Assembly (NCBI GenBank): GCA_041690135.1
Contig: JAWLHY010000020.1
Span: 25,542-89,541, forward strand
Origin: Armatimonadota bacterium
Lineage (GTDB): Bacteria > Armatimonadota > SYMT01
Direction: 5' to 3'
Length of the DNA stretch: 64,000 nucleotides
Below, in pieces: positions 7,845 to 41,221 of the stretch; the first letter of the stretch is position 1, and every line of letters starts with the position of its first letter. The notes beneath the pieces are model-generated. The model did not search any database, was not told where the DNA came from, and was given only the letters and a program-made list of their open reading frames with translations. The position numbers and the translations under genes are program-made.

Positions 7845-7958
7845 AAAAAAGCAGCCGCAGGGGCCACGGCTCCTGACTGCTTGAGCCCAGGCGAGCGGCT
7901 GTTTCTTCCCCCGTGCTCCCCGGTGGTCGTCCACCTGATCTCGCCAGTTACACGGGAG
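7845..7958 (-). promoter_or_regulatory. ZMP/ZTP (pfl) riboswitch with downstream intrinsic terminator
   Basis: The minus strand reads CCCGTGTAACTGGCGA..GGTGG acga CCACCGGGGAGCACGGG..GCCGCTCGCCTGGGC (aptamer about 7884-7958), then the terminator GCAGTCAGGAGCC gt GGCCCCTGCGGCTGC-TTTTTT. It lies upstream of glyA, a canonical target. Confidence 0.93.
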
Positions 7959-8129
7959 TAGTTCCACGGGTATACGCTGCCGGACCAACACAGGCCCGGT
8001 CGCGGGCGGGCTGCTGTTCAGTCACCCTCCTGCGGAACCGGATCATTGTACCTCCGGCTCGACAGCCCGTGTCAACTTCCGGCCGATTCCGGGATAGCGC
8101 CAGGAAATACCGCGAGGCGCCTGTATCCG

Positions 8130-38150: not shown

Positions 38151-39248
38151 ATGGCGACAGCACTGAAAGAGAGACCGCCGACAGATGCGACGGTCCGCAG
38201 CGAGCGCCTGGATGGAGAGACGGCGGCCCGGATTGCCGGACTACGTTATGTGGACGATAGCCGCCCCGGAATCCGGCGCCGAAAGCGTGGGCGGAGCTTC
38301 AGCTATGTGCGGGCTGACGGGAGAATGGTCACCGACGCGGCCACCCTGAAGCGGATCCGCTCTCTCGCCATCCCTCCCGCCTGGACGGAGGTGTGGATCT
38401 GCCCCACCCCGAACGGCCACATCCAGGCCACCGGCCGCGACGCGAAGGGAAGAAAGCAGTATCGGTATCACGCTCGCTGGCGCGAGGTGCGGGACGAAAC
38501 CAAGTACCACCGGATGCTGGCTTTCGGACGCGCCCTGCCAGGCATCCGTACGCATGTGGCCCAGGACCTCGCGCGGCCGGGTCTGGCGCGCGAGAAGGTT
38601 CTGGCAGCCGTAGTACGCCTCCTGGAGACGACCTTCATTCGCGTAGGCAACGAGGAGTACGCCCGTAAGAACGATTCGTTCGGCCTCACTACCTTACGCG
38701 ACGAACACGCCGAGATCGCGGGCAGCACGCTGGAGTTCCATTTTCGGGGCAAAAGCGGTGTCGAACACCACGTTCGCCTGCGGGACCGGAAGTTGGCCCG
38801 CATCGTGCGCCAGTGCCAGGATTTGCCGGGTCAGGTCCTCTTCCAATACCTGGGACAGGATGGCGAGCGCCACTCCATCTCATCCTGTGATGTGAACGAC
38901 TACCTCCGCGAAATCTCCGGTGAGGACTTCACCGCCAAGGACTTCCGGACCTGGGCCGGCACCGTCCTGGCGTTCCACGCGCTCCGCAAGTGCCTGCCCT
39001 GTGAGACCGAGCGAGAAGCCAAAAGGCAGGTGGTGCAGGTCGTCAAAGACGTGGCGAAGCGCCTCGGAAACACGCCGGCCGTCTGCCGGAAGGGATACAT
39101 CCACCCGGCCGTCCTTGAGACCTTCCTGGATGGAACCACGCGCCCCACCCTGGGAGCAGTGTGCCAGGAGGCGGATGGCCATGAATGGACGGCGCTCACG
39201 GAGCAGGAAGCAGCCGTGATGGTATTCCTAGAACGGCGTACGCGTTAA
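38151..39248 (+). CDS. DNA topoisomerase IB (poxvirus-like bacterial type)
   Basis: IPPAWTEVWI, GRDAKGRKQYRYH, RVGNEEY, FRGKSG, KDFRTW and LGNTPAVCRKGYIHP (catalytic Tyr). Confidence 0.96.
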   Translation: MATALKERPPTDATVRSERLDGETAARIAGLRYVDDSRPGIRRRKRGRSFSYVRADGRMVTDAATLKRIRSLAIPPAWTEVWICPTPNGHIQATGRDAKGRKQYRYHARWREVRDETKYHRMLAFGRALPGIRTHVAQDLARPGLAREKVLAAVVRLLETTFIRVGNEEYARKNDSFGLTTLRDEHAEIAGSTLEFHFRGKSGVEHHVRLRDRKLARIVRQCQDLPGQVLFQYLGQDGERHSISSCDVNDYLREISGEDFTAKDFRTWAGTVLAFHALRKCLPCETEREAKRQVVQVVKDVAKRLGNTPAVCRKGYIHPAVLETFLDGTTRPTLGAVCQEADGHEWTALTEQEAAVMVFLERRTR

Positions 39249-39425
39249 CCGATGCTTCGGTCTGGGTTGAAGGTTAGCAGGTTGGCAGGTCATCGGAGTT
39301 CGGAAGCAGTATACCGACCGTAGTGGATATGCTGGACTCTAACCTCCTGTCAGTGCGGGATGGGAGTCCCGACGCTGGTCCGTTCTCACTTGCGACTGCG
39401 AATCCCGCAACGGGCTGGGCAACAG

Positions 39426-39938
39426 GAAGCGCCTCCGGGGCGGAGGACCCGGAGGCGCTTCGATTAAGCCGGTGGAGATGCGCCAGCCCAGCAGCCCGAA
39501 CGGCCTGGGGTCGAGGCCCCGGGTCGCGTCCGTCTCGAACCTGGCCCCACATCGGGTGCCTTCATCGAGAGCCGCTCCGCGACGACCGATGAGCGGCGAC
39601 TCTTCTCCACACTTCGGCTGGTTATCAAGTTTCAGCTCCGGAATGGACCGGAAGGCTGTTGTAGCGACCGTTATTCAGTTGTTGCCGTTCTTCAGTTGTT
39701 GGTCGTGTAGCGACCGCTATCGACTCGGCGAGCAAGCCCCGCCATTGATTGCCACTATTCAGTTTGCCGTTATTCAGTTGGCCAATATTCAGTTCGCCCG
39801 TATTCAGTTGTCCGTTATGCGGTTTTCTACACCGCCGCCGGACCCGCCGGCAGCGGAGGTTGGTCTCGATTAACGAGGGAGCCGTGGCCGCTCCGGCCTC
39901 CTTCCGGCCGGAGCTGGGGCTGTTTTCCCCACCCTCGA
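39426..39938 (-). ncRNA. Candidate long structured ncRNA with repeated AACUGAAUA motifs (unassigned)
   Basis: No credible CDS. TATTAT -10 box at 39948-39943, 5' hairpins, six repeat motifs, a long-range 3' stem and a 14-bp terminal hairpin at 39426-39461. Confidence 0.5.
39661..39809. repeat. Array of TATTCAGTT (minus strand AACTGAATA) motifs
   Basis: Copies start at 39672, 39689 (TCTTCAGTT), 39756, 39771, 39786 and 39801. GTAGCGACCG is duplicated at 39661 and 39707. Confidence 0.9.
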
Positions 39939-40174
39939 CTGCATAATACCCGCTGGTCAGAACTTAAAACGGGCAGACGATACTGTTCATTGACTGAGTT
40001 ATGGGCGAGAGCCCGGAAGCATCCCATCGTCCTTTCGAGGGAAGGGCCTCCCGGCCGGAGGTTGGAGCGCTCCACCGTCTTTGGGCCGGCTCGAGATCGA
40101 TGACCGGCGAGGGAGGGAGGCAGGCAACGGACGCGTAAATAGCACGCTGTTCGAACCCATTCTCAGGAGCCTTT

Positions 40175-41221
40175 ATGCCTACCCTTAGCTACGAAACTCT
40201 CTGCGCCATCACACGGAAGGCCGCAGTCGCACTGGGCTGCCCGGAGGACGAGGCGGCGATCATCGCGGAGAGCCTGGCCGGTGCCAACCTGGCGGGCCAC
40301 GATTCCCACGGTATCATTCGGCTGGAGCAGTATACGCAGTTGGTCCGCGCCGGCGATATCATGCCGGGCGGGGCGACCACCACCGTCCGCGAAACGCCCT
40401 GCACGGCGCTCCTCGACGGCGGCTGGAACTTCGGCCAGGTGGTCGCGCGGCGCGCCATCGACCTCGCCTGTGAGAAGGCCCGGCAGTATGGAACCGGTAC
40501 GGTGAGCGTGCGCAACAGCAACCACCTGGGACGCCTGGGAGAGTACACCCTGATGGCGGCCCGGAAGGGGCTGTTGGCGCTCGGTATGGTGAACAACCAC
40601 GGCCGCGGCAACCTGGTGGCACCGTTCGGCGGCAGCGACGGCCGCCTCGCCACCAATCCGCTCTCCTTCGCCTGTCCGGGGTCAAAACAACCGATCTTGG
40701 TCGATATCACCACCAGCGTGGTAGCCGAGGGAAAGGTCCGCATCAAGAAGAACGCCGGCGAGGCCGTGCCGGAAGGCTGGATCATCGACAACCAGGGCCG
40801 CCCTTCCACCGACCCGAACGACCTCTACACGAACCCGCGCGGAGCCATCCTGCCCTTTGGCGGCCCGGTCGGGCATAAAGGGTTTGCGTTGAGCGTGATG
40901 GTGGACATCCTTTCCGGCGCGCTCTCCGGCGCCGGCTGCAGCTACAGCAGCACCTGTCGGCTGGGGAACGCGATGTTCTTCACGGTGATCGATCCGGAGA
41001 AGTTCGTCACGCCCGAAGAGTTCGTCGAGCAGGTGGGCGTGCTGGAGCGCCACATCAAGGCCTCCCCGCCGGCGCCCGGCTTTAACGAGATCCTGATGCC
41101 GGGAGAGCCGGAGCTGCGGGTGGAATCCCGGCGCCGGGAGAACGGGATCGCCATCGATGAAGAAACGTGGCGCCAGTTCGTGGCAACCGTTGAGAGCCTG
41201 GGAGTCAGCGTCGAACTGTAG
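40175..41221 (+). CDS. Ldh_2 family (malate/L-lactate/sulfolactate-type) oxidoreductase
   Basis: GHDSHG, SNHLGRLG, ATNP, DITTS and GHKG motifs. Confidence 0.92.
   Translation: MPTLSYETLCAITRKAAVALGCPEDEAAIIAESLAGANLAGHDSHGIIRLEQYTQLVRAGDIMPGGATTTVRETPCTALLDGGWNFGQVVARRAIDLACEKARQYGTGTVSVRNSNHLGRLGEYTLMAARKGLLALGMVNNHGRGNLVAPFGGSDGRLATNPLSFACPGSKQPILVDITTSVVAEGKVRIKKNAGEAVPEGWIIDNQGRPSTDPNDLYTNPRGAILPFGGPVGHKGFALSVMVDILSGALSGAGCSYSSTCRLGNAMFFTVIDPEKFVTPEEFVEQVGVLERHIKASPPAPGFNEILMPGEPELRVESRRRENGIAIDEETWRQFVATVESLGVSVEL

Follow-up and report, generated by a model that had tools for sequence, protein, structure and literature searches.

The window analysed here is a 64,000-nucleotide (nt) stretch of contig JAWLHY010000020.1 (assembly GCA_041690135.1, positions 25,542 to 89,541) from an Armatimonadota bacterium with a 9.1-Mb genome of 65% G+C. 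The gap between a bacterial topoisomerase IB gene and a gene of the Ldh_2 malate/L-lactate dehydrogenase family had been proposed, in an earlier reading of the letters alone (the sequence-only reading), to hold a structured minus-strand non-coding RNA with a repeat array, possibly a protein sponge. Both flanking genes were recovered with Pfam as that reading had given them, and every feature it had named was located on the minus strand where it had been placed; its interpretation as a whole was supported in part. Since topoisomerase IB is convergent with the proposed RNA and Ldh_2 is divergent from it, a minus-strand transcript in the gap would be a separate unit. The gap is very likely a genuine non-coding RNA gene that carries a row of short single-stranded motifs.

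Motif rows, RNA coverage and predicted fold of the locus

The motif AACUGAA(U/G)A, of which six copies had been claimed, occurs six times in the window (searched as AACTGAAKA), always on the minus strand, with plus-coordinate starts at 39672, 39689, 39756, 39771, 39786 and 39801 and a span of 39672-39809. Only 0.21 occurrences were expected by chance, and six were reached in 0 of 100 shuffles. Four of the copies are arranged with an exact 15-nt period and stand behind a seventh, degenerate unit (motif row 1), and the other two form motif row 2 (Table 1). The four units of the exact 15-nt row agree at 12 of their 15 positions (AACUGAAUA plus GGC), and each of the remaining three shows three or four different bases. 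The 9-mer AACTGAATA was found 16 times on both strands of the whole genome, five of them within this locus, and no second cluster of this kind was found elsewhere in the 9.1 Mb. Row 2 was the best genome match of a model of unit pairs (R1, see below), with 29.7 bits and E = 5e-6, and a near-identical pair is also present in G005, a genome of the same family. Because 12 of 15 unit positions are invariant, and because relatives repeat the 9-mer with other spacers and periods, selection acts on the 9-mer motif rather than on the whole repeat.

The non-coding character claimed for the gap held: none of its six open reading frames (ORFs) of at least 40 amino acids had a Pfam match at E values up to 0.1. 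The frame that follows the 15-nt period (QLNxG) is open for 112 codons, with no ATG, GTG or TTG ahead of the repeats. The longest ORF, of 133 amino acids on the plus strand, had no relatives among the proteins of near length in the protein collection, and its G+C content at third codon positions (GC3) is 0.66, versus 0.77 and 0.85 in the flanking genes. A pentapeptide-repeat protein was considered and rejected, given the missing start codon before the repeats and the absence of a Pfam Pentapeptide match in the six ORFs.

Known RNA families were searched with Rfam cmscan, over the window at gathering thresholds and over 39200-40200 permissively (E up to 10). In line with the sequence-only reading, no family matched the locus at its gathering threshold, and neither search returned a Csr/Rsm family. 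The best sub-threshold match was CcsR1 (RF02791) at 39421-39495, with 23.6 bits against a gathering threshold of 65.3; it is limited to the last 75 nt, which contain the terminal hairpin, and leaves the motif rows outside. Elsewhere in the window, the only match at a gathering threshold was a ZMP/ZTP (pfl) riboswitch at 7878-7961 on the minus strand (65.4 bits versus 39).

Seven public sequencing runs were considered for 39300-40100, and part of this stretch was present in three soil RNA libraries from two studies and in one DNA run, whose contigs were compared with 38900-40500. The metatranscriptome contigs of the two studies together cover 39615-39928. One contig of library X1 (285 nt, depth 7.8) matched 39615-39899 with 0 differences, one of X3, from the same study, matched 39617-39769 over 153 nt with 0 differences, and one of X2, from the second study and from a related strain, matched 39663-39928 over 266 nt with 13 differences. 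All three lie inside the candidate RNA, and row 1 has contig cover from all three libraries. The 5' domain is covered up to 39899 (X1) and 39928 (X2), and no RNA contig extends past 39928-39930. The X1 and X3 contigs stop at 39615 and 39617, just beyond the 39633-39658 hairpin, though contig ends are not transcript ends. Eight of the X2 differences could be located, all at 39841-39885 and outside the rows, and the other five lie near the contig ends. Two of the located differences fall in the CCGCUGCCGG/CCGGCGGCGG hairpin, a loop change (39844) and a G-C to G-U change (39841), and both are compatible with the hairpin.

For the flanking coding sequences, no contig of this organism was found in the RNA runs, which is not evidence of absence, and the lack of an RNA contig over 39426-39614 (3' domain) proves nothing either way. 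Short RNA pieces at 38922-38971 carry 2-4 differences and continue into unlike sequence; therefore, they come from other organisms. The DNA run gave contigs over 39780-39930 and 40008-40158. In addition, X1 contains a 215-nt contig with a depth of 37 that matches motif pieces only and was read as a related RNA of another organism. This abundance in soil metatranscriptomes suggests that such RNAs are highly expressed in nature.

The predicted architecture is collected in Table 1. The structural elements described by the sequence-only reading were all found, from the TATTAT box through the complementary CGAGGG (39937-39932) and CCCUCG (39879-39874) segments and the hairpins UGGGG-aaaacag-CCCCA (39931-39915) and GCUCCGGCC-ggaagga-GGCCGGAGC (39914-39890) to the terminal hairpin. 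The 8-mer UUAAUCGA is indeed present twice (39873-39866 and 39467-39460), but its recurrence is within chance, about two recurring 8-mers being expected within ~510 nt by our own arithmetic. A consensus promoter scan of the locus found no full sigma-70 site. The terminal hairpin lies ~210 nt past the last unit, its U tract is poor, and it was called by neither strict terminator scan; the promoter and the transcript ends of this RNA are putative. The 521-nt fold has a z-score of -3.9 relative to 100 shuffles, and the predicted mean unpaired probability is 0.70 for motif bases versus 0.35 for the rest of the RNA.

Table 1. Features of the candidate RNA locus and its flanking genes (window coordinates; MFE, minimum free energy).
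Feature	Coordinates	Strand	Basis and remarks
Bacterial topoisomerase IB, flanking gene	38151..39248	+	Pfam Topoisom_I 5.1e-40, Top1B_N_bact 3.5e-27; convergent with the RNA
Terminal hairpin, 13-14 bp, loop UCCUCCGC, weak U tract (CUUCCUGUU); candidate terminator	39427..39460	-	Sequence
GC-rich predicted 3' domain; membership in the RNA uncertain	39462..39632	-	Fold only; no ORF with a Pfam match
Predicted hairpin CAGC-cu-UCCGG-uccauu-CCGGA-GCUG	39633..39658	-	Fold
Motif row 2: AACUGAAGAACGGCAAC then AACUGAAUAACGG, 17-nt spacing	39668..39700	-	Sequence
Two short predicted hairpins between the rows (~39727-39743 and 39701-39715)	39701..39743	-	MFE and centroid folds; lineage-specific
Motif row 1: degenerate AACCGCAUAACG (39824-39813) followed by four AACUGAAUAnnGGC units whose motif starts are exactly 15 nt apart (39809, 39794, 39779, 39764)	39753..39824	-	Sequence
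Hairpin CCGCUGCCGG-cgggu-CCGGCGGCGG	39832..39856	-	Sequence and fold; claimed earlier and confirmed
Predicted 5' domain: CGAGGG/CCCUCG closing helix around two GC-rich hairpins	39874..39937	-	Complementarity verified; MFE and centroid folds
TATTAT, -10-like box; putative promoter element	39943..39948	-	Sequence; function putative
Ldh_2 malate/L-lactate dehydrogenase family, flanking gene	40175..41221	+	Pfam Ldh_2 4.9e-109; divergent from the RNA

Related rows in other genomes and their context

Conservation in related genomes, a check that the sequence-only reading had proposed, was found for the repeat part and not for the structured domains. A DNA similarity search of 41 relatives that imposed no pattern matched the repeat part alone, in G006 (81% over 74 nt) and in G005, which represent two further genera of the family. 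The GC-rich 5' and 3' domains had no detectable counterpart in any relative and are specific to this lineage; the proposed domains are therefore thermodynamic predictions. The loci of G006 and G005 contain rows of the same 9-mer with different spacers and 15-18-nt periods, and a terminator hairpin comes after the row of G005.

Searches with patterns extended this distribution. Of the 401 phylum genomes sampled, 30 were matched by a two-unit pattern, some through real rows and others through simple repeats or pairs that arose by chance. When the pattern was made degenerate and extended to three units (AACNNNATANNG twice, then AACNNNATA), 25 of the 401 gave a match, versus 5 genomes for the reversed control; by our reading, 21 of the 25 carry variable-spacer rows and four carry exact tandem repeats. 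The same pattern matched 11 of 32 genomes in family f7. Outside the phylum it matched two of 112 genomes of a Firmicute class around a Peptococcaceae metagenome-assembled genome (MAG), and only that MAG had a row of this type. With all searches pooled, rows were found in ~30 sampled Armatimonadota genomes from eight families (f1, f6, f7, f10, f13, f22, f27 and f29).

The proposed class, defined by at least three consensus units on one strand with variable spacers, has rows of 3-9 units with the consensus A(C/A)AAC(U/C)GAAUA(G/A)CG. Short A/C-rich spacers, 2-9 nt in length, separate the units, and the period ranges from 14 to 18 nt. In the window copy, seven units stand on one strand. The full consensus from 168 units is A(C/A)AAC(U/C)(G>A)(A>C)AUA(G/A/C)CG(A)(C). 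Bias was also found at positions that the pattern did not require, with A at -2 in 147 of the 168 units, C at +2 in 108 and U at the eighth motif position in 160. At the centre of the unit, three bases vary widely (UGA, CGA, UUC, CGC, UAA, CAA, CAC and others), and AAC, AUA and CG are fixed.

A typical member is 100-250 nt long and consists of a short leader, 3-9 units, sometimes an internal hairpin, and then a hairpin with a U-run. The window copy is far longer than other members, with ~110 nt of GC-rich hairpins ahead of the rows and ~210 nt of GC-rich sequence between the rows and the terminal hairpin. In 15 of 32 loci, the row is followed on the motif strand, at a distance of at most 150 nt, by a strict hairpin with a U-run, versus 3 of 32 in the opposite-strand mirror control; this version replaced an earlier loose terminator finder, which gave 27/32 versus 20/32. 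The terminator strand bias indicates that the rows have polarity at the RNA level.

The neighbours of the rows are diverse. Pfam annotation of 20 proteins returned M20 and S41 peptidases, YfhO, DUF1501, a glycosyltransferase, an ECF sigma factor and others. In 8 of 31 loci, the row has a histone-deacetylase-family gene next to it; these genes are 50-69% identical to one another, which shows that the RNA is syntenic across several f7 genera. In 8 of the 31 loci, though not in the window, a small membrane-protein gene of the Transgly_assoc family (GlsB/YeaQ/YmgE) lies on the row's strand, all eight being confirmed by Pfam; it is upstream of the row in L047, L202, L231, L234 and L235, and downstream in L017, L164 and L238. 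In family f7, the block of row and Transgly_assoc gene is divergent from the histone-deacetylase-family gene. In family f6, unit pairs or triplets occur just 5' of cyclic di-AMP (c-di-AMP) and cyclic di-GMP (c-di-GMP) riboswitches: in L031/L244 (G266), two to three units come after a promoter-like TTGACA…TATATA and ahead of a c-di-AMP riboswitch (83.9 bits), and in L032 (G197), two to three units precede tandem c-di-GMP-I-type riboswitches. Rfam applied to 12 related loci returned riboswitches beside rows only. The units thus occur in free-standing RNAs as well as in mRNA leaders and 3' regions, as would be expected of a binding site common to targets and a decoy.

A metagenome search with a pattern derived from row 2 gave no matches. 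A scan of genome contigs and a second metagenome scan were swamped by AACTGAAT-type microsatellites with 7-, 8- and 14-nt periods, from Bacteroidota and others, and said little on distribution; the few variable-spacer matches among them were L047, L069, L080, L102, L058, L060, L160, L164, L177 and L176/L188/L194. Among L035-L114 and L155-L199, many loci are intergenic microsatellites whose unit is AACTGAAT (8 nt) or ACTGAAT/ACTGAAA (7 and 14 nt). Their hosts are Bacteroidota, Planctomycetota and others, often with an inverted copy nearby and several per genome (Longitalea, Niastella, a Planctomycetota MAG). These AACTGAAT/ACTGAAT-type microsatellites are unrelated to the variable-spacer rows. 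In the present genome (G000), outside the window, two inverted arrays of 8-nt units (CCGAACAC / GTGTTCGG) surround ~250 nt near a gene end at C2 ~946700-947060, and a similar CCGAACAC array is found at C3:62947-62985.

Several further rows were recorded outside the sampled phylum genomes. Isolated variable-spacer 9-mer rows stand just before a terminator in L102/L161 (the Peptococcaceae MAG, G401), in L058 (Bifidobacterium reuteri), in L060 (B. tissieri) and in L160, a metagenome contig of 27% GC. The Peptococcaceae unit AACUGAAUAGCGACAA equals the Armatimonadota consensus, and a row was seen in only one of 112 genomes of its class; either transfer or convergence may account for it. The metagenome contig L155 (68% GC) has a five-unit row with a 17-nt period, a hairpin and then the row's own reverse complement; its two rows could pair as one long hairpin, an architecture unlike the rest. 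Three metagenome contigs of 53-56% GC (L176, L188 and L194) carry up to ~10 AACYGAAUA-agGAUCG units with a 16-nt period and a conserved spacer, followed by a ~120-nt conserved stretch common to all three. The 9-mer can also be coding. By eye from the DNA, the 15-nt repeats of L171 read as an A(N/E/Q/K)LNN pentapeptide repeat, and two motifs of L009 (G320) fall in the apparent N-terminus (…QLNKTQLNKT…) of a signal-peptide protein after a c-di-GMP riboswitch.

Possible function and alternative explanations

Exposed, constrained units with free spacers are the signature of a multivalent binding platform. In the proposed mechanism, the gap would hold a separate minus-strand non-coding RNA gene whose core is seven single-stranded units, six of them exact AACUGAA(U/G)A, and this RNA would be a local, unusually long member of an Armatimonadota class of unit rows that often ends in an intrinsic terminator. 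The units would multivalently bind a sequence-specific single-strand RNA-binding factor, probably a protein, which the free-standing RNA would titrate or scaffold. The regulatory targets would be units in mRNA leaders and 3' regions, such as those of the Transgly_assoc genes and the c-di-AMP/c-di-GMP riboswitch leaders. The fixed-variable-fixed pattern of the unit and the uneven spacing point to a protein that recognises RNA in single-stranded form, and speak against a continuous RNA duplex or a DNA-binding protein. Titration or scaffolding in trans, with the leader units as targets, is favoured because the window copy cannot act in cis on a gene, and we give it an even chance of being right. 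The protein-sponge mechanism is suggested by analogy, and the action in trans and the identity and kind of the binder are what we infer.

A broader version is conceivable and is put forward only tentatively: an undescribed global post-transcriptional system of Armatimonadota, in which a protein would read the bipartite single-stranded site AAC-N3-AUA-NCG and control stress-related mRNAs, and dedicated decoy RNAs with many sites, the window RNA among them, would antagonise it. Its targets would be GlsB/YeaQ-type genes and genes under second-messenger riboswitches.

The search for a binder covered several candidates, and none of those examined was identified as the partner. CsrA (PF02599) was not found in this genome, which is 97% complete, nor in G005 and G006 of the same family; it was found in G385 and G314, and the search controls were positive. 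Hfq is encoded in all five row-bearing genomes examined, a presence that says nothing about binding, and the absence of A-R-N runs and of AANAANAA from the RNA argues against canonical Hfq distal-face binding. ProQ was not found in any of the five genomes. Searches for PUF and PPR_2 gave no matches, but their controls were silent too, so they are uninformative. The present genome encodes two forms of Hfq and five glycine-rich RRM proteins. The genes of the RRM proteins were considered as motif-bearing candidates and set aside, since the conserved leader of four of them lacks the motif. One paper reports binding of RbpB to single-stranded regions, with a 41-nt motif (PMC11697453).

As a separate observation, four of the five glycine-rich RRM genes share a ~45-nt 5' leader (…AAGUUCAGAUCGAGUUCGUA…CAUUACCG…UCGGAA…) ~200 nt before the start codon, which may be an autoregulatory element. 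These RRM_1 gene leaders lie outside the window, at C1:1025812, C6:370637, C11:268344 and C10:1119 of G000.

Several points weigh against the platform interpretation, besides the missing partner. The genome-wide enrichment of the 9-mer that the sequence-only reading had proposed to look for did not appear: the 16 occurrences of AACTGAATA compare with ~18 expected from base composition by our own arithmetic, so there is no sign of many exact-9-mer target sites. (A crude rule based on ORFs and GC3 placed 14 of 28 other AACYGAATA sites in coding and 14 in non-coding sequence, and was not relied on.) Next to the genome's own Transgly_assoc gene, no clear unit was seen. Detection of the class is patchy, with a row in ~30 of ~400 genomes. 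Model R1, a sequence-only model built from 31 unit pairs and too short for a sensitive search, matched 12 of 151 genomes, several of them in coding sequence or by chance, and missed G005. The patterns used for collecting required the motif, and conservation at the required positions is partly by construction. Many members lie in mRNA leaders or 3' regions, and the class may act mainly in cis. Finally, the contigs of the RNA libraries carry neither strand nor transcript ends, and such libraries may contain DNA, so that contig cover is support and not proof.

The strongest alternative, though an unlikely one, is that the row is a cis module, a leader or 3'-UTR (untranslated region) element that recruits a factor for termination, stability or translation, and that the window copy is an orphan or the remnant of a long leader. 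The rows directly 5' of Transgly_assoc genes in L164 and L238, each followed by a hairpin and a Shine-Dalgarno sequence with ATG (SD-ATG), fit this explanation, as do the rows 5' of the c-di-AMP and c-di-GMP riboswitches, the five rows that lie 3' of Transgly_assoc genes ahead of a terminator, and the SD-ATG that comes after the terminator in L018. It is opposed by the window itself, where topoisomerase IB is convergent, the upstream gene is divergent and no minus-strand gene follows the row, so that this copy cannot regulate in cis as a leader or UTR. Several other rows (e.g., L003 and L014) also end in a terminator followed by a gene on the opposite strand.

It is improbable that the units work by base pairing, either as seeds that pair with mRNAs or as a sponge for a small RNA carrying the complement (UAUUCAGUU). 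Repeated single-stranded seeds have precedents in other small RNAs, such as the LhrC and CcsR/cuckoo families, and Yfr2 sponges Yfr1. A pairing partner with G and U could accommodate the main variation within the unit, which is at positions 4 (U/C) and 5 (G/A), and at one site of the genome (C2:1145920) the complement stands right before GGAGGA-ATG. Nevertheless, three free central bases between fixed AAC, AUA and CG are better explained by a bipartite protein site than by a continuous duplex, the genome contains the 9-mer and its complement about as often as chance predicts by our own arithmetic, and no second locus with a complementary motif was seen there.

An element that acts as DNA, namely direct repeats bound by a DNA-binding protein (iteron-like, centromere-like or an operator array) with an incidental transcript, is very improbable. 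Iterons and partition sites typically consist of direct repeats with 9-12 conserved bp, and the locus is intergenic between divergent and convergent genes; yet the units are spaced 14 to 18 bp apart, varying inside a row as well as from row to row, which leaves no helical phasing, and the rows show the strong strand polarity with respect to terminators given above. In addition, the motif strand is A/C-rich and predicted to be unstructured, neighbours differ by locus with no partition or replication gene among the 20 scanned, and RNA contigs lie over the row and none over the flanks.

Least credible of all is a tandem repeat in neutral decay, or what is left of a short coding sequence for a pentapeptide repeat (QLNxG x4, read along the 15-nt period): the exact period of 15 nt is divisible by three, the frame stays open over a long stretch, the metagenome contig L171 holds AACTGAATAACGCG 15-mers that read in frame as its pentapeptide repeat, and AACTGAAT microsatellites are common in other phyla, but the frame lacks a start codon ahead of the repeats, there are no Pfam or protein matches, GC3 is below that of the flanking genes, the variable positions are first and second codon positions with all third positions fixed (the opposite of what coding would conserve), the periods seen in relatives are 14, 16, 17 and 18 nt, and neutral decay of a tandem duplication would not keep 12 of 15 positions and scramble three.

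What is new here is a motif-array RNA with a new motif, in a row that is not private to this genome. To our knowledge, no small RNA or RNA regulator has been described in Armatimonadota, a little-studied group common in soil, though the literature searches were too broadly framed to bear on this. The motif strings, searched in full text, gave primers and unrelated papers only, and nothing relevant was found on small RNAs or RNA motifs of the phylum, which is weak evidence of absence given the broad logic of the terms. The simple signature of this locus and ~30 related loci could be used to find the whole class in the phylum and to fish for its binder.

Comparison with known RNA systems

CsrB/CsrC and RsmX/RsmY/RsmZ are sponge RNAs of CsrA/RsmA that present GGA motifs in hairpin loops. 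Like them, the window RNA would be a free-standing non-coding RNA with many copies of an exposed short motif, a terminator at its end and a logic of multivalent titration, and the same motif would be expected in the leaders of target mRNAs. Unlike them, and as the sequence-only reading had pointed out, its motif is not of the GGA type, being AAC-N3-AUA-NCG in an A/C-rich single strand: GGA occurs 10 times in 512 nt versus 11.65 in shuffles, and only once near the rows. There is also no Rfam match, no CsrA in G000, G005 and G006, and the phylum is different.

In Pseudomonas, CrcZ/CrcY sequester Hfq/Crc through A-rich AANAANAA motifs. The window RNA resembles them in its length of ~400-500 nt and in its several unstructured A-rich motifs between hairpins. 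It differs in having 0 matches to AA.AA.AA (AANAANAA) and 0 runs of three A-R-N triplets on the minus strand of 39420-39960; the conserved U, G and CG of its motif misfit the rule of the Hfq distal face, and no Rfam family matches.

TRAP is a multi-subunit protein that is wrapped by leaders with (G/U)AG repeats in Bacillus (trp, pabA and trpP). Such leaders share with the present class a row of short repeats with variable spacers and, in L164 and L238, the layout of leader plus terminator hairpin. The units of the class are 12-14 nt long with a 14-18-nt period, in contrast to TRAP triplets at 5-6 nt, and the window copy has no downstream gene.

The likeness to CcsR1/'cuckoo' RNAs (RF02791) lies in the terminal hairpin, which has a C/U-rich loop of the CCUCC type; the score is far below the gathering threshold, and the motif rows fall outside that family. 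Type III antitoxin RNAs (ToxI) are also tandem RNA repeats, each bound by one protein. ToxI units are ~34-45 nt long and near-identical, precede the toxin gene and fold into pseudoknots, whereas the units of the class have 14-18 nt with free spacers, those of the window follow a 15-17-nt period with no same-strand gene after them, and no toxin-like gene was found among the 20 neighbours scanned.

Membership in CsrB/RsmZ or CrcZ fails on covariance model, motif type and, for CsrB/RsmZ, presence of the partner. The locus opens the question of whether sponge-type control has arisen again with a different motif; if the global system outlined above were true, Armatimonadota would have arrived at the Csr/Rsm or Crc/CrcZ logic independently. 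By analogy, the closest functional models would be CsrB/RsmZ and CrcZ for the free-standing RNA and, for copies borne on leaders, the repeats bound by TRAP.

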